Made by a program: the position numbers and the translations under genes. The notes beneath the pieces were generated by a model. That model searched no databases, was not told the DNA's origin, and worked only from the letters and a program-made list of their open reading frames with translations. From a bacterium (lineage in GTDB: Bacteria > SAR324 > NAC60-12), in contig CBDBHR010000016.1 in the NCBI GenBank assembly GCA_965205865.1, positions 1-50,654 on the forward strand: 50,654 nucleotides of DNA. Direction: 5' to 3'. Shown one piece after another: positions 8,712 through 47,903 of the stretch (position 1 is the first letter of the stretch; every line of letters begins with the position of its first letter).

Positions 8712-8906
8712 ACAATAAGAGGACCAAAAGGAGAAAAACGCCCGGCCAACATAATAGCCAGGTCCGTGATGATTGCGCAGATCGCCACCGGTGAGATTGA
8801 AGACACTCATTATGAACAGCCTAACAGGGTCAAAGGTGGCAAGGCCGGAGGGAAAGCCCGCGCTGAGAAAGTGATCAACAATCAGTTAACTCTGGAGACC
8901 GAGAAA
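8712..8906 (+). pseudogene. Remnant of a small basic mobile-element-associated protein, in frame with the MTase
   Basis: RGPKGEKRPANIIARSVMIAQIATGEIED…KGGKAGGKARAEK resembles the small GPKGEKRPAD…IATGE…GGKARA proteins I recall next to transposases. The C-terminus is missing. Confidence 0.6.
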
Positions 8907-10394
8907 ATGCAAGATGATTTACAGAGATCATTTGATTTCTATGAGAAAGATTCTGTCGGTGTTTATCTACCACCTCAAAGTTACAAAGGACTATCAGGCT
9001 TCCACAAATATTGGGGGAAGAAGCCTACTGAGACCTGGCGATTTCTTATAGAAAATCTCACTGAACAGGGAGATATAGTTTTGGACCCATTTCTTGGTTC
9101 TGGGCTTATAGCTAAGGAATGTGCTGATCGAGAACGCCGATTTATCGGTTTTGATATCAATCCGATTAGCATTGAACTAACAAAACTTTATCTACAACCA
9201 CCACAATACGTAGATTTGAGAAACGCGATTCATGAGATTGACAGAAACTTGAAGGCTACTATTAACTCAACTTATCTGTTATCGGATGGAAATATAGCTA
9301 CTCATTTTCTATGGAAGAAAGATCGAATAATTAAGGTGTGGACTAAAAACGGCAGAAAGCGAGTCGAACTTAATGTAGACAAAGAAGAAATTGACAAGAT
9401 CCAGAATGCAAAAACATATAAGCCAATAAAACTAAGAAATCTGCGGTTATTTGACAACTCCAGAATAAATTCCAAAAAAGGCCTTTCAGTCACAGTACTC
9501 TTCACACCTCGGGCGTTGCGGACGATTGATTTAATTAAAACTGAAATAGAAGGGTATTCTAGTGCATTAAAGAGAGCATTGCAGCTTATACTCTCGTCAT
9601 CTTTGGGACAAATGTCGAACATGGTATTTGCCATCTCAAAGAGAGGGAAAACCAAAGGTAAGAAAGCCGACAGGATTGAAGTTGGTAGTTGGGTAATTGG
9701 GTATTGGCGCCCCGATATGCACTTTGAGATTAACGCTTGGAATTGTTACGAGAACAAAGCCCATAAGCTGTTAAAAGCAATTGATGAATTGAGAATAACT
9801 CAACAGACCAATATTTCACCAAGTTTAGGGTTTTTCTTACAAGGACAAGAAGCCACATTTATACACAAGGGCGACTCCGAGATACTTCTGAAAGATATAC
9901 CTACAAGCACAATCAAGGTGATATTGACAGACCCGCCTCATGGCGATAGAATTCCATATCTAGAACTCAGTGAGTTGTGGAACGGCGTCATAGGTCTTGA
10001 TTCAAACTACGAAGAAGAACTCGTTGTCTCAGATGCGAAGGAGCGTGGCAAAGACCTAAATGCCTATAACAATAAACTTTCATCGATATTTCATGAGTGT
10101 TCTCGTGTATTGAAAAAAAATGGATTATTGGCTGTGATATTTAATTCAAGATTGAAGAACTATTGGAATAGTCTTCACGAGTTAGAAGAGGCTTCAAGCC
10201 TTGCATACCTAGGGTGTTATCCGATGGAATATTCGGCAGGATCAGTTATCCAAGATAACAGAGAAGGTAGTCTAAAAACTGATTTTGTGTTGCTGTACGG
10301 CAAGGATATCAGCGAAGATTATAGGATAAAAATTCTGGAGATTTTTGCCGCTTTAAAGGAATGGTCGCTTGAGTATCCAAAGAAGGTTTGTTAA
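8907..10394 (+). CDS. Amino (N4-C/N6-A) DNA methyltransferase of a type II R-M system
   Basis: HKYWGKKP, motif I VLDPFLGSG, motif IV ILTDPPH (motif I before IV), ECSRVLK. The likely start is ATG 8907; the ORF track starts at 8766. Confidence 0.9.
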   Translation: MQDDLQRSFDFYEKDSVGVYLPPQSYKGLSGFHKYWGKKPTETWRFLIENLTEQGDIVLDPFLGSGLIAKECADRERRFIGFDINPISIELTKLYLQPPQYVDLRNAIHEIDRNLKATINSTYLLSDGNIATHFLWKKDRIIKVWTKNGRKRVELNVDKEEIDKIQNAKTYKPIKLRNLRLFDNSRINSKKGLSVTVLFTPRALRTIDLIKTEIEGYSSALKRALQLILSSSLGQMSNMVFAISKRGKTKGKKADRIEVGSWVIGYWRPDMHFEINAWNCYENKAHKLLKAIDELRITQQTNISPSLGFFLQGQEATFIHKGDSEILLKDIPTSTIKVILTDPPHGDRIPYLELSELWNGVIGLDSNYEEELVVSDAKERGKDLNAYNNKLSSIFHECSRVLKKNGLLAVIFNSRLKNYWNSLHELEEASSLAYLGCYPMEYSAGSVIQDNREGSLKTDFVLLYGKDISEDYRIKILEIFAALKEWSLEYPKKVC

Positions 10395-11482
10395 GAATGT
10401 TGGACTTTGATACAGCAATAAATCTATTCAAGACCGATGGAATTCGAGAACTCTCATCAACAGCTGAGGGGATGCGGTTTTTGAAACTGCGCTCATTATC
10501 TCGAAAAGACCAACTGGAGTGTTTAATTAATAGATTTGAGATAGAAATAGGTAACGTAAATTTCAGGGGGTGGCTGAAGTTAATTTATAAATCAGGTGTA
10601 AAATCAGAAGATATAGATGAAATTATACTGGAACTGTATAAAAACGAACGAAGAGGCAGAAGAAAGAACGAAAAGCAGTTAGTTAATGAGTTGTATAAAG
10701 TTCAGTCTTTTGAATGGGGAGGTCTGCATCAGAATAGCTTGGAAACAACAATTGTAGACAATTATGTGAAGAAAATAACCTCCTTTGATGTCTTGTGCAA
10801 CGAAATAGAAAATGGGCTACATGATAGTATGCGTGCTTATGTATTGGCTTCTTGGTACAACCATTGGAGTTCAATTATCATTGAAGACGTTTTTAAGGAC
10901 AATGAGAAAGTGATTCCAGCAGTAGGACTGATAAAAAAGATTGATTTTTTTGTTAATGATAAACCGTTTGATTTGAAGGTCACATACTTACCTGAAGGAT
11001 ACATTAAAGTCTATCGAAAATCCTGTGGCTTACGTCCTGAATTAACGTTAATGAAAGGGTTGGCTAGAAGGTTAAATGTGGGATTTGACACTTCCGTAGC
11101 CGACTCAGTGCTAATCCCCGATCTATGGCGAAAACTAGATGACAATCCGGAAGATTGTGCACGTGAATTAATCAACGAGTTACAGGAATGCAGGGAAATG
11201 TTGCTAAATGAGTGTGTCGCAAATCCAAAGTCGCTGGTTCGATGGCTTTATGAAAATCAAGGATTAAGACGATTCGATGCTTCAAATCGCTTGTTCTTAG
11301 TGCTTGTAGACAAAAGCAACTTTTTTGATTCTTGGAAACTAAAAAGAGCTAGACCTCTAATTTCAGCCACAGTAAACAATTATCTTGACCAAATCAGCAA
11401 AAAAATAGGCTTCCAACTCGAGTTTGTTTGGGAAGGAGACACTTATTTGACCGAATCAGATGTAATATTCGTTGTTAAGTAG
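10388..11482 (+). CDS. Putative type II restriction endonuclease (PD-(D/E)xK)
   Basis: Coupled to the MTase; candidate catalytic segment IIEDVF…KIDFFVNDKPFDLKVT. Confidence 0.75.
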   Translation: MLRMLDFDTAINLFKTDGIRELSSTAEGMRFLKLRSLSRKDQLECLINRFEIEIGNVNFRGWLKLIYKSGVKSEDIDEIILELYKNERRGRRKNEKQLVNELYKVQSFEWGGLHQNSLETTIVDNYVKKITSFDVLCNEIENGLHDSMRAYVLASWYNHWSSIIIEDVFKDNEKVIPAVGLIKKIDFFVNDKPFDLKVTYLPEGYIKVYRKSCGLRPELTLMKGLARRLNVGFDTSVADSVLIPDLWRKLDDNPEDCARELINELQECREMLLNECVANPKSLVRWLYENQGLRRFDASNRLFLVLVDKSNFFDSWKLKRARPLISATVNNYLDQISKKIGFQLEFVWEGDTYLTESDVIFVVK

Positions 11483-11566
11483 GGAAGGGGTCAGAAGGGG
11501 GTCAGGCCTTTGATTAGATGAAAAGGGAGCAAAAAAACTAGACTCGTTCCTAATCAAATAATTAAA

Positions 11567-12256
11567 GTCACCGTAAAGAACTGACTTATAGTGGTTTCCA
11601 GCCACCTTTCGTCATTCCTCCGGTACAGATCCGGACGTGCGCTGCTAACGCATCCGGCTCCTGCTTCGAGTCAGACGCTCAAACGTTGCCGTTTGGCGCA
11701 CCCTGCTTGAACCGCTCTCTGATTTTACCGGCCTCTGAGTTCCGAACACAGGAGGACAAGCAGAATTCCTCTCAGCCAAGTCCCTTTGCTCCACAGGCTC
11801 CGTTGATTTCCTTTGCATTGTTACTCTACAAACGATCTCATTGTTCGCCGCTTCATCGCTACTACGAACTTGTCCGACTTCCTGAAGACGTAGATATCGG
11901 GGTTATTTATTAATTTTCCCGATCCGACTACCAATGGAATGTTGACAGTCATCCTCAGGATCTCCCAGGTTCCGATCAAGAAACTTCCACACATGCACCG
12001 GGTCTTTGACTCCGCCAGGCTCAGCCGAGACTCACGCTAATGCCTTCGGTTGATCTTGCCTTCCCCACCAGACCACAAGGTCAGCGCCTGAAACTATGAT
12101 TTCGGAGCTCAATACCGAGCCTGTGTTCTCCCCTGTCAACGCTTAGCGCCTATCCTTGCGAATAACCACTCATGACTCGGGGACTCGGCGGGTCGTTACT
12201 GCCTTACCGAGTAAGAGACTTTCACTCTCTATTTCTTGTCAGCTTTCCTGGCGCAC
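11567..12256 (-). ncRNA. ORF-less group II intron (IIB-like, resembles bacterial class E), 690 nt
   Basis: 5' end GTGCGCCAGGAAAG at 12256. Domain V GAGCCGGATGCGTTAGCAGCGCACGTCCGGATC (11628-11660). Domain VI stem with a bulged A 8 nt from the …GAC 3' end (11567). EBS1 GGUCUG (12069-12074) pairs with the 5' exon CAGGCC. Confidence 0.9.
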
Positions 12257-12360
12257 GGCCTGAACCCGTTTCCATTGGCACATGGCTACTCTAGTGAGAA
12301 ATCTTGAATGGAAAAAACGAACGAATCATTTTTTGCAAACTTGCAAGCCTGACCCCCTTC

Positions 12361-12669
12361 AAGTCCATGATTCTTTCGGTCAAAGGTGGGAAGACCGTAA
12401 GACCAGTGGACATCAGAGAACTAAGGGGGAGTCTTGAAAGAGAAGATGATACCGTCATGGCTGGGTACCTCTCAATGACTGATCCCAGTAAGAAGATACT
12501 AGAAGAAGCGGACAGCGCAGGAACCTATGAACATCTTGGAATCAAGTACCCCCGGATTCAATGTCTGACAGTATCTCAAATATTAGAAGGGCAGTTAGAT
12601 TTCAAAACACCTTCTAAGATTGGAACCAAGATTGCCACAGGGCAACAAAATCTGAATCTGGACCTATAG
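12361..12669 (+). pseudogene. C-terminal fragment of an Mrr-like endonuclease domain (as in MTase-Mrr fusions)
   Basis: ILSVKGGKTVRPVDIRELRGSLERE…AGYLSM…EADSAG…YPRIQCLTVSQILEG. The homologous part begins right after the repeat ending at 12360. Confidence 0.7.
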
Positions 12670-12682
12670 GGAATAAAATAGC

Positions 12683-12747
12683 CGAATCATGCTTCAAATA
12701 CAACCATAGACGTAATAAAAACATGTTCACAGACATGGTCAAACTTT
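12683..12747 (+). pseudogene. 3'-terminal fragment of an IS1595 transposase related to the one at 2-778
   Basis: 12683-12712 is identical to 700-729 (30 bp); similarity continues to aaacttt. Confidence 0.85.
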
Positions 12748-12813
12748 ATGAAACATCCCGTCTGAATATTGAAGAAGAAAAGACTTTTAGTTCATATTTC
12801 AACAAACCATTTA

Positions 12814-13137
12814 TTACTTTGAAACAGGAAATAAATAATTTGCGACAATAACAAATAAGGCCAGAATATTAGCAGTTGTGGTACCAAGAAGTGTTATGAT
12901 GATTGTATCTGAAAGATAAAATTTTATAGATGTGAATCCGTGAAAAATTAAAACCGACCCGACAAAAATCAGCCAACCACTATTAAATACAGATATCAAT
13001 ATCGCATAATTTTTTTTCTGAGAAATTTTTTGTTTAAGAAGTTCTAGTTCTAGTTTTAAATGTTCTTTTTCAAATTCTGTATATTCATTTGTACTGTCTT
13101 GATATTTTTCTTCAAGATTTCCCGGGTCTTTAAGCAT
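12814..13137 (-). CDS. Small two-TM membrane protein coupled to the Panacea gene (candidate toxin/effector)
   Basis: Charged N-terminus and two hydrophobic helices; 1-bp TGATG overlap with the upstream gene. Confidence 0.75.
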   Translation of the reverse strand: MLKDPGNLEEKYQDSTNEYTEFEKEHLKLELELLKQKISQKKNYAILISVFNSGWLIFVGSVLIFHGFTSIKFYLSDTIIITLLGTTTANILALFVIVANYLFPVSK

Positions 13138-13637
13138 CAGAATTTTTTATAATACTCTTGAATTAAACTATCTTTGATTACACTTTCATTATTAACATGG
13201 GCTTGATACCATGGGGTACCTTCTTCATGAGTTAAATTTGAAAGCTCAATAGCTGTATATTTCCCGTAGATTTTCCAAACTTCATCAACAAATTTCAGAA
13301 TTTCTTTTTCTTTGACTACGGGCGTGTACATATCGGCTTTCAGAATGTTATTGTCTATATTTTGAAACCTTTTTTTTAAATCCACAGTCGTTCCTTTTTC
13401 TGTAATATAATTATGTCCGTATATTTTAAATTCTTCGTATACAGAGATTATAACAGGCCCATACTTCCATGCTCTGACACGTTCATGAATTAGTGGGAAA
13501 TCTTGAATTGCAAGATAATATCCATGAGCGATATAAATCAGTTTCTGAAGTTTCATGTGCGTAATTTTATTTTCTGATTTTTTGGCTGCATCCAAAAATT
13601 CATTGGCGATAGCAAGGGCTTCGTATGTTTTTTTCAT
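13137..13637 (-). CDS. Panacea/SocA-like antitoxin domain protein (DUF4065/GepA)
   Basis: ALAIANEFL, ITHMKLQKLIYIAHG, RAWKYGPVI, YGKYTAIELSNLTHEEGTPW. Confidence 0.92.
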   Translation of the reverse strand: MKKTYEALAIANEFLDAAKKSENKITHMKLQKLIYIAHGYYLAIQDFPLIHERVRAWKYGPVIISVYEEFKIYGHNYITEKGTTVDLKKRFQNIDNNILKADMYTPVVKEKEILKFVDEVWKIYGKYTAIELSNLTHEEGTPWYQAHVNNESVIKDSLIQEYYKKF

Positions 13638-13887
13638 TTCAGAAAAAGAATATAAGATTGATAGATATTAATCATAATCTTCGGGGAGAGCTCTAAGAAA
13701 AAACACAGAAATGCTCTCTAACATTTGTAGAACATATACAGTGATTTATTACAATGTCAATAAGTTTTTTTATGGGCGGAATCGGGGTCAAATCGGGGTC
13801 AGGCTTGCAAGTTTGAATCGGGGTCAGGCTTGCAAGTTTGCAAAAATGGGGTATTTTTTTAAATTTTAACCTTTTCAATTTGCCAAG

Positions 13888-14161
13888 ATGTCTCTGAAAC
13901 TGCGTTTGTAGTACCCTGGTGCGCTTTATTATGTGATACTTGCGAGGCAATGGGGGCAACGTATTTTTTCGATGACAGCGACTCTCGTCGCTTTTATCAG
14001 TCTTCGATTGGAAATCTGCAACAATCCGGGAAGTGGCAAATGCTCTCAAGCGAGATGATGCTACTTTCAGTCGTGGAGTGTATAAGTTGAGAGAAAGATT
14101 GAAGGAATCCACAAATCTCCAAGAACGGTTAAAAGAACTCCACCTAAAAATGTTTTCTTAA
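13888..14161 (+). pseudogene. Internally deleted Y1/HUH (RAYT-like) transposase with C-terminal DnaA-like HTH
   Basis: The N-terminus MSLKLRL*YPGALYYVIL/RGNG/GQRIFFDDSD (stop and frameshifts) is joined to the C-terminus ATIREVANALKRDDATFSRGVYKLRERL. It is bounded by inverted GGGGTCAGGCTTGCAAGTTTGC repeats. Confidence 0.8.
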
Positions 14162-14188
14162 ATTCGCAAACTTGCAAGCCTGACCCCT

Positions 14189-47646: not shown

Positions 47647-47903
47647 AGTCCCTGAGGGACGAAAAGGTATAGCCCAGCAATTCATTGCTGGGTAAGGAAA
47701 CCCCCTTCCTCTCAGCTAGTCCCAGAGAGACGACACTTCTTCGGTCGAGCGAATTAATGCAAAATATAACACTCATCATATTTAAGATTATGTTTTCATG
47801 GGATATGAGACCTCATTGTTGTTTCGTCCCTCCGGGACTTTGAAGGAGCCATTTGTACCCAGCGATAAATCGCTGGGCTACTTTCTTTCGTCCCTCAGGG
47901 ACT
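47647..47903. repeat. REPIN/MITE-like nested inverted repeat between dppB and dppC
   Basis: Outer perfect 18-bp inverted repeat agtccctgagggacgaaa / tttcgtccctcagggact. Inner palindromes tagcccagcaattcattgctgggta (47670-47694) and tacccagcgataaatcgctgggcta (47856-47880). Confidence 0.88.

Follow-up and report, generated by a model that had tools for sequence, protein, structure and literature searches.

A group II intron that lacks an open reading frame (ORF) has very probably retrohomed into the head of a transposon repeat in a SAR324 bacterium, with its exon-binding site 1 (EBS1) reading the target and a protein presumably acting in trans. This nonautonomous intron lies in a stretch of 50,654 nucleotides (nt), here called the window (contig CBDBHR010000016.1 of assembly GCA_965205865.1, lineage NAC60-12), which is contig C16 of a 4.74-Mb genome of 30 contigs and 48% G+C (G000). 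The interrupted repeat is the terminal inverted repeat (TIR) of Y1 transposons of the TIRYT/TIRtron family. What is unusual is the target, an 11-nt head common to all repeat families of the Y1 transposon, including single repeats and dimers that carry no gene. The head gives the intron more than 100 landing sites and at least 41 insertions.

A group II intron in one arm of a repeat dimer

The window element is a genuine group II intron of 690 nt without an ORF, located on the minus strand from position 12256 to 11567; its ends, GUGCGCC...CGGUGAC, agree with the group II consensus (5' GUGYG, 3' AY). Read along that strand, the order is ...GGGTTCAGGCC / GUGCGCCAGG ... CUUUACGGUGAC / TTTAATTATTTGATTAGG..., where the slashes represent the splice junctions. 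When the flanks (11490-11566 and 12257-12275) were joined, 23 uninterrupted genomic places matched them over the junction by 8 nt or more on either side; the best was C27:116155-116238 (96.4% over 84 nt). Because the joined flanks match these 23 uninterrupted copies, the intron boundaries are exact and the repeat is restored by removal of the intron. An earlier reading of the window from its letters alone had placed an ORF-less group II intron precisely in one arm of an inverted repeat, which was borne out; boundaries that leave the repeat unrestored were not encountered. The uninterrupted counterparts are palindromic repeats of approximately 80 nt, i.e., dimers. A repeat search of the window returned arms at 11495-11508 and 12257-12270 as well as a third copy of the motif, free of any insertion, at 12347-12360, and the inverted partner arm described in the sequence-only reading is present and intact (Table 1).

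The Rfam model group-II-D1D4-6 (RF02005) matched the intron with 162.8 bits (E = 3.5e-47, gathering score 49) over positions 1-225 of 225, so that one of the two Rfam checks proposed in that reading gave a strong match. In the minimum-energy fold of the last 99 nt, a domain V hairpin is followed by a long domain VI, with the A at -8 unpaired between two helices (z = -3.3). Apart from chance frames, no ORF of 60 amino acids (aa) or more was found across the window intron.

Copies of the intron lie behind the head of a dispersed repeat

In the window, GGGGTCAGGC occurs nine times with at most one mismatch, versus 2.6 occurrences expected, and none of 100 shuffles reached nine. In the genome, the exact 10-mer is present 145 times, where composition predicts approximately 7 and the reversed control gives 19, and the intron occupies 24 of these 145 sites. 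A blastn search of the genome with the window intron gave 69 aligned segments. Of the 41 intron 5' ends, 31 lie behind GGGGTCAGGCY (23 exact, 8 with one mismatch), and 35 have GGGGWSAS, with one mismatch or none, at -11 to -4. The copies thus do not lie in unrelated flanks. At exon position -1, the 41 5' ends have T in 25 and C in 16 cases. Among 36 3' exons, the first base (+1) is T in 30 cases, C in five and G in one, the latter at a junction between tandem introns.

The 3' exons belong to several families, including those that begin with TTTGATTA..., TGCAAGTTTGCA..., TGCATA...TGGTA/TTGTA and TGAAAGTTTGGA.... For 27 of the 35 testable 3' exons, at least five uninterrupted counterparts exist behind the same motif; the first 12 nt of the window 3' exon (at most two mismatches) follow it at 30 empty sites. 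Five or more repeat families contain the intron, and either arm of the ~80-nt dimer can be occupied, which requires several independent insertions. Only one of the 41 5' exons is a complete misfit, that of an intron situated directly behind another intron (C26:239711/239712). At this place (C26:239009-240174), two copies are arranged head to tail with no base between them (...CGGUGAC/GUGCGCC...), consistent with a further insertion at a target that was already filled.

A single insertion into a repeat unit, or a few of them, could also have been followed by copying of repeat-plus-intron units by the Y1 transposase, in which case the link between intron and motif would reflect hitch-hiking. Such passive spread would be in line with the 16 of 36 3' exons that begin with TTTGATTA, all from one dimer family, with an insertion point 11 nt inside the repeat head, so that the intron would travel with the element, and with the presence of five near-identical Y1 elements in ~25 kb on C29, two of which harbor the intron. 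We consider it improbable, given the number of repeat families involved, the use of both dimer arms and the eight sites at which only the 5' exon resembles the motif. The tandem junction, which fits reinsertion at an occupied target, and the match of EBS1 to the motif, with which it covaries in other genomes, also argue against hitch-hiking.

The target is the conserved head of TIRYT/TIRtron repeats

Pfam Y1_Tnp matches were obtained at 15 places in the genome. The typical Y1 protein has 312 aa, with an N-terminal Y1 HUH domain (PF01797, 52.7 bits, cut-off 23) and a C-terminal Bac_DnaA_C helix-turn-helix domain (PF08299, 33.3 bits, cut-off 31.5); its score against NCBIfam NF047646 REP_Tyr_transpos, 72.4 bits, is under the cut-off of 80. 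In Y1 copies of the C29 type, GGGGTCAGGC has position -83 relative to the ATG, and an inverted copy of it has position +955, approximately 19 nt past the stop codon. Other long Y1 copies have the 10-mer at similar distances (-91, -149 and so on). At five of the 15 Y1 genes, the intron is inserted in the left repeat, in the orientation of the gene. The proposal of the sequence-only reading that the intron specializes in repeats of Y1-associated elements is therefore supported, as the motif brackets Y1 genes and precedes most intron copies.

RAYT-like genes with terminal inverted repeats have been named TIRtrons and their enzymes TIRYT, with the motif GGGGWSAS common to the TIRs and with families of TIR repeats found singly, as dimers or in clusters (Di Nocera et al. 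2013, PMC3733652). These elements correspond to TnpA_REP subclass 2.1, with Bac_DnaA_C or helix-turn-helix C termini (Quentin et al. 2018, PMC6006769). The Y1-associated elements of the sequence-only reading are this published family, whose TIR consensus is GGGGWSAS. The elements of G000 share with it the HUH domain, the Bac_DnaA_C-like C terminus and inverted repeats whose head, GGGGTCAG, fits GGGGWSAS, and their repeats show the same three arrangements (single, dimer, cluster).

Three aligned Y1 proteins of G000 served as the query of a metagenome scan, which yielded 442 confirmed relatives; 80 loci were kept, 70 of them with at least 130 nt upstream. In the 160 nt or less upstream of the match start, GGGGTCA was found at 51 of these 70 loci, GGGGTCAGGY at 33 and GGGGWSAS at 38, compared with 4 for the reversed control. 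Because the motif lies upstream of most metagenomic homologs, the intron target is the deeply conserved head of the repeats of this Y1 family.

Some arrangements of Y1 elements are worth recording. Five near-identical 312-aa Y1 genes, all on the minus strand, are clustered in ~25 kb at C29:722000-746000 (partly in locus L122), and in two of them the left repeat is occupied by the intron. The left end of a decayed Y1 element in the window (13780-13830) consists of short tandem partial repeat heads (aatcGGGGTCAaatcGGGGTCAGGCTTGCAAGTTTGaatcGGGGTCAGGC...). Similar stuttered heads are found upstream of Y1 genes in metagenome loci L123, L133, L141, L142 and L145 and in Psychrobium (L117).

EBS1 pairs with the last six bases of the 5' exon

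All six bases of EBS1, GGUCUG, pair with CAGGCC, the intron-binding site 1 (IBS1) of the window copy, including one G-U pair; this is the pairing that the sequence-only reading had given. Since the leading G of EBS1 can pair with U as well as with C, CAGGCU is recognized too, and the intron accepts either variant of the head. Homologs were compared in 26 rows, i.e., the window intron and 25 introns from homologs found with the protein in named genomes. EBS1 and IBS1 form at least five of six pairs in 24 of these rows, versus 24% of mismatched controls, and the two rows that do not pair correspond to an alignment gap and a truncated copy.

EBS1 varies between genomes in a compensatory manner. 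In G000, GGUCUG is combined with 5' exons ending in ...CAGGCY. In a genome of the same genus (G001; intron identity 90%), EBS1 is AGCCUG and the 5' exons are GGGGGTCTGGCT and AGGATGGGCT, which are CAGGCU-like. In another genus of the family (G008; intron identity 82-86%), EBS1 is UGGCUG and the 5' exons are AAGGACAGCCA (CAGCCA). Within G000, EBS1 is polymorphic among the 16 full-length ORF-less copies: ten have GGUCUG, five AGUCUG and one GAUCUG.

The mode of recognition was considered together with the subgroup. The pattern of subgroup IIC, IIC-attC introns included (insertion downstream of a hairpin, with a short IBS1 and no IBS2), was not observed: the intron is inside the arm, its EBS1 pairing extends over 6 bp, and nonpalindromic sites are used. 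Thus, the analogy with IIC-attC introns drawn in the sequence-only reading holds for the lifestyle and fails for the position, as the intron, guided by 6 bp of EBS1-IBS1 pairing, enters the repeat arm itself and not the DNA behind a hairpin. Recognition of the repeat as a DNA hairpin rather than by its sequence, as for IIC introns at terminators or attC sites, would be suggested by the many targets that are palindromic dimers and by a protein without a detected endonuclease, like the proteins of IIC introns; the comparison with IIC is also made in PMC12584367. We regard this as highly improbable: insertion takes place within the stem and not beyond it, the targets include nonpalindromic unique sites and single repeats next to Y1 genes, the EBS1-IBS1 pairing is a full, covarying 6 bp, and the intron matches the whole of the Rfam model D1D4-6.

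The ORF-less form arose once and multiplied

The 16 full-length ORF-less copies in the genome measure 689-703 nt, with pairwise identities of 95-99.9% (median 97.7%), and many members of the family are truncated or interrupted. Longer copies, of 1957 nt, match the ORF-less form in two blocks (nt 1-569 and 569-690), separated by ~1.27 kb that encodes a reverse transcriptase/maturase of 470 aa. This protein matches TIGR04416 (344 bits, cut-off 300), and its only match in Pfam is RVT_1. No endonuclease domain was found in it by Pfam or NCBIfam matches, and approximately 33 residues follow the TIGR04416 match. The ORF is intact in four copies; one further copy aligned in two separate segments, and several are truncated.

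The ORF-less copies are located at different sites, and all retain the first 44 codons of the gene and share one deletion junction. This common junction and the retained codons indicate a single origin followed by multiplication; on this sequence comparison, the ORF-less form arose once and then spread. The four intact 1957-nt copies presumably mobilize it in trans. Such mobilization is plausible, as it fits 16 copies with one junction at different sites alongside four intact ORFs.

An insert of ~905-913 nt, present in four copies that are 99.9-100% identical, interrupts the ORF-less intron at nt ~400 (Table 1). It starts with GUGAGC and matches Rfam group-II-D1D4-4 weakly (33.2 bits, below the gathering score of 49), and a 197-nt fragment of it is found at C29:45404. 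Domain V was not found in this insert, and excision at its exact ends does not give back a clean host sequence. The insert may represent a second, nested intron, forming a twintron.

Proposed retrohoming mechanism and evidence on activity

In the proposed reading, the intron of the window is nonautonomous: it retains its ribozyme and has lost all but 44 codons of the reverse transcriptase/maturase gene. It would retrohome into the TIR head, GGGGTCAGGCY/T, which in this case is in one arm of an ~80-nt dimer. Pairing of EBS1 GGUCUG with the last six exon bases, CAGGCY, would provide recognition, and the conserved GGGGW upstream may be read by an EBS2 or by the protein. The latter would be supplied in trans by the four intact 1957-nt sister copies. 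For introns without an endonuclease, priming from nascent strands at replication forks is established. We infer that cDNA synthesis would be primed in this manner here, because no endonuclease domain was found in the 470-aa protein. As every repeat family carries this head, each is open to the intron, which accounts for the 40-odd copies.

A number of observations weigh against this reading. The EBS1 variants of the ORF-less copies do not follow the base at -1 (C or T), and two AGUCUG copies lie behind ...GGCC. An EBS2 was searched for as 5-mers pairing with -11 to -7 in the first 275 nt of 21 homolog rows, and no recurring column was obtained. A candidate, GACCC, could pair with GGGUC at -10 to -6; it fits G000, partly G008 and not the others, and is a lead only. 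Of the IIB-like label in the sequence-only reading, the EBS1 part is solid, and no EBS2 was found that is consistent across homologs. The other Rfam check, with the domain V model RF00029 (Intron_gpII), gave 28.5 and 31 bits on the homologous last 96 nt of sister copies, below the gathering score of 40, and a scan of the window with this model had no match at that score. At the target, 10 of 41 5' exons have two or more mismatches to GGGGTCAGGCY and 8 of 35 3' exons have no repeat counterpart; therefore, the specificity is not absolute. A strand bias that bears on priming at forks is modest: the sense strand is the locally G-rich strand at 30 versus 11 occupied sites, compared with 56 versus 54 empty sites (Fisher p = 0.016), and as it rests on a weak, noisy local GC skew, this is a hint only. 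The lack of an endonuclease is deduced from the length of the protein and from missing Pfam and NCBIfam matches. The window copy is antisense to both neighboring ORFs. Finally, no contig joins 11566 to 12257 in four sequencing runs, three metatranscriptomes and one of unrecorded kind (window 10900-12900); the RNA contigs cover intron-family and repeat sequence, not the unique flanks, and are uninformative on splicing.

The last two points also speak for the view that the window copy, and perhaps the whole ORF-less family, is an inactive fossil that inserted in the past and can no longer splice or move. The many truncated or interrupted copies and the degenerate repeat around the window copy (GGGTTCAGGCC and TTTAATTA) are consistent with this possibility. 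We nevertheless consider it rather unlikely, in view of the close similarity of the 16 full-length copies and of the four intact protein genes. Moreover, the 11 positions at which the window copy deviates from the majority of the 16 include none in EBS1, the 5' end, domain V or domain VI, so that it has no private change in these parts. Metatranscriptome contigs of two studies (runs X15-X17, window 11436-12373) carry intron-family sequence, which speaks weakly against a fossil since DNA carry-over could account for such contigs; transcription of the family is possible. One contig of 622 nt, with a depth of ~3900, has the domain V-VI end joined to sequence from outside the window.

If retrohoming into the repeat head is correct, a lineage that reads this head would represent a new niche for group II introns and would explain dozens of copies of a nonautonomous intron in a 4.7-Mb genome. 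It would also offer a setting in nature where a single-strand DNA transposon and a retroelement depend on the same DNA, whether as competitors or by sharing it. The presence of GGGGW beside a retunable EBS1 site allows one to ask what guides an endonuclease-less intron besides EBS-IBS pairing.

Related introns in other genomes

A DNA search of 40 relatives detected the intron only in G001 and G008, and the 10-mer is enriched only in G000 (see above) and G001 (42 versus 11 for the reversed control). In G001, three ORF-less copies are located at the left end of the leaders of Y1 elements, with at least one Y1 gene fragment directly downstream. Homologs of the protein with 47-65% identity are present in Gammaproteobacteria, Acidobacteriota, Planctomycetota, Verrucomicrobiota and others. 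In 13 of 24 distant homolog loci, GGGGWSAS (at most one mismatch) is placed exactly at -11 to -4; these 13 loci come from five genomes, of Spongiibacteraceae, Thiodiazotropha, Psychrobium, Desulfobacteraceae and Planctomycetaceae. An inverted partner of the motif lies downstream in 5 of the 13, versus 1 of the other 11, and the reversed control has 0 or 1 match per locus.

In a maximum-likelihood tree of 25 proteins, the motif-targeting introns cluster, with 2 label changes versus a shuffle mean of 6.7, a value as low being found in 1 of 500 shuffles. A clade with an SH-aLRT support of 96 contains seven motif-targeters, including the G000 intron, and one row whose exon is unknown. This was a quick tree, in which stop codons were replaced by X in five rows and one protein (L073) has a long branch. 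In the genomes themselves, GGGACAGGC is enriched in Psychrobium (22 versus 1) and Planctomycetaceae (180 versus 57) and not in the other three that were tested.

Forty-one ORFs, chosen from 143 downstream of distant homologs, were scanned against Pfam. The only clear match to Y1_Tnp was that of an ORF after the intron at locus L074 (E = 2.8e-7). An ORF at L078 matched Y1_Tnp below the cut-off (E = 9.4e-4) and aligns to the Y1 profile over the HUH motif only (26 columns, probability 64%), and an ORF at L070 reached a profile-profile probability of 85.9% to the Y1 profile. Other results speak against a general link with Y1 elements. Housekeeping genes and DDE transposases account for most of the remaining ORFs that scored any family. 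No copy of the motif of the intron is present near the long Y1 genes retrieved from the Planctomycetaceae genome (G043), and those retrieved from Psychrobium (G041) have another variant, AAAAGGGTCAGGTT, in front of them. A profile of intron domain I matched 0 of the 80 metagenomic Y1 loci, and so the association of intron and Y1 gene is not general to the transposon family. The 5' exons of plasmid homologs (52-55% protein identity; Pseudomonas, Burkholderia and Sinorhizobium) are unrelated.

Specialization of the whole clade on these transposon ends is likely, not established. In its full form, the proposal is that a clade of introns with no detected endonuclease specializes on the GGGGWSAS termini of TIRYT/TIRtron Y1 transposons, inserting 3 nt past the motif across Gammaproteobacteria, Desulfobacteraceae, Planctomycetaceae and the delta-like lineage of the window, and that it retunes EBS1 to the repeat variant of each host while keeping recognition of GGGGW. 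We judge the case for this full form to be evenly balanced. If true, it would mean that a lineage of retroelements has coevolved as a parasite of a family of DNA transposons, and the intron may use the same single-stranded DNA at replication forks as the Y1 enzymes.

On plasmid pBCJ2315 of Burkholderia cenocepacia J2315 (L205, around locus position 2063), a homolog with 52.7% identity is situated right after the palindrome TACTGTATGTTTGTACAGT, beside a divergent imuA. We take this palindrome to resemble an SOS (LexA) box.

Features of the window

The positions of the intron, its parts and associated features are collected in Table 1. Upstream of the repeat cluster, a 364-aa ORF without a family, overlapped by an N6_N4_Mtase DNA methylase ORF of 542 aa (window 8766-11482, plus strand), stops 6 nt before the cluster. 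At 12814-13637 on the minus strand, a SocA/Panacea antitoxin-like ORF (166 aa, Pfam E = 6.5e-22) and a 107-aa ORF without a family share base 13137 and may form a toxin-antitoxin pair. Two matches to Acido-Lenti-1 RNA, at 47647-47692 (minus strand, 45.8 bits) and 47858-47903 (plus strand, 50.5 bits; gathering score 37), are inverted and ~170 nt apart.

Table 1. Coordinates of the intron, its parts and associated features (window positions unless a contig is given)
Feature	Position	Strand	Basis or remark
ORF-less group II intron	11567..12256	-	Rfam RF02005, empty-site alignment; 1 of 16 full-length ORF-less copies
5' exon end, head of interrupted repeat arm, GGGTTCAGGCC	12257..12267	-	IBS1 CAGGCC at 12262-12257
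3' exon start, remainder of interrupted arm (TTTAATTATTTGATTAG...)	11548..11566	-	sequence
Intact partner arm of repeat dimer, GGGGTCAGGCCTTTGATTAG	11498..11517	+	sequence, repeat search
Unoccupied target, GGGGTCAGGC then TTGCAAGTTTGCAAA	12347..12356	-	~90 nt upstream of intron, same strand
Domain I-IV core (RF02005 match)	12000..12222	-	Rfam
EBS1 GGUCUG, intron nt 183-188	12069..12074	-	loop of Rfam alignment; pairing across homologs
Candidate EBS2 GACCC, intron nt 62-66	12191..12195	-	lead only (see text)
Remnant, first 44 codons of intron-encoded protein	11687..11818	-	tblastn with 470-aa protein
ORF deletion junction, intron nt 569	11688		alignment to ORF-carrying copies
Domain V, GAGCCGGAUGCG...CGCACGUCCGGAUCU	11627..11660	-	read from sequence; folds as hairpin
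Domain VI, bulged branch-point A at 11574 (8 nt from 3' end)	11567..11626	-	predicted fold
Decayed Y1 (TIRYT) element, C-terminal helix-turn-helix remnant only, between inverted GGGGTCAGGCTTGCAAGTTTGCAAA repeats	13795..14187	+	by eye against C4 Y1 protein
Copies of ~905-913-nt insert	C30:1206301-1207213, C28:263296-264208, C29:627304-628216, C30:788634-789547 (locus L121)		genome G000

Comparison with known systems

Group II introns are known to reside in other mobile elements. RmInt1, an endonuclease-less IIB intron, reportedly homes into the insertion sequence ISRm2011-2. Introns of the RmInt1 type share with the present one a reverse transcriptase/maturase without a detected endonuclease, recognition by EBS-IBS pairing and residence in another mobile element. 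They differ in that their target lies inside one gene of an insertion sequence, whereas the target here is a short head common to many repeat families and to gene-less derivatives.

Further specialized niches of group II introns include attC sites, and a proliferation of ORF-less group II introns has reportedly taken place in Thermosynechococcus. The specialized niches given in PMC12584367 are terminators, used by IIC introns, and start or stop codons, used by a IIB1 family. Introns of subgroup IIC at terminators or attC sites likewise specialize on a recurrent, structured intergenic motif. They use a short EBS pairing plus a hairpin and insert downstream of the stem, unlike the intron described here, which uses a 6-bp EBS1 and inserts inside the arm. 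The same source describes ORF-less introns of Trichodesmium, in dnaN and RIR, that are served by a related maturase. In Trichodesmium and Thermosynechococcus, as in G000 with its 16 full-length versus 4 intact copies, nonautonomous introns outnumber coding ones, but those of the two cyanobacteria occupy housekeeping genes or diverse sites rather than one transposon repeat.

Insertion sequences target REP elements, and a group II intron of Pseudomonas putida is REP associated in 2 of 9 copies (Tobes and Pareja 2006, PMC1525189). The common feature of REP-targeting insertion sequences and the present intron is the use of a dispersed repeat as a safe landing site for a mobile element. The P. putida intron differs in the extent of this association, 2 of 9 copies compared with 31 of 41 5' ends behind the motif in G000. 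In an incomplete search of the literature, with sources available in part, no paper was found that links group II introns with TIRYT, RAYT, REP or REPIN elements in this manner, the nearest being PMC1525189. As for the TIRtron/TIRYT papers, the available text of PMC3733652 does not contain the word intron, and that of PMC6006769 has it only for the IStron, in the background and in a reference entry.

IStrons, cited in PMC6006769, consist of a group I intron fused to an IS200/IS605-type element. They resemble the system described here in that a self-splicing intron is associated with a Y1-type transposon. They differ from it because the group I intron and the insertion sequence form a single fused unit, whereas in G000 a group II retroelement separately invades the repeat.

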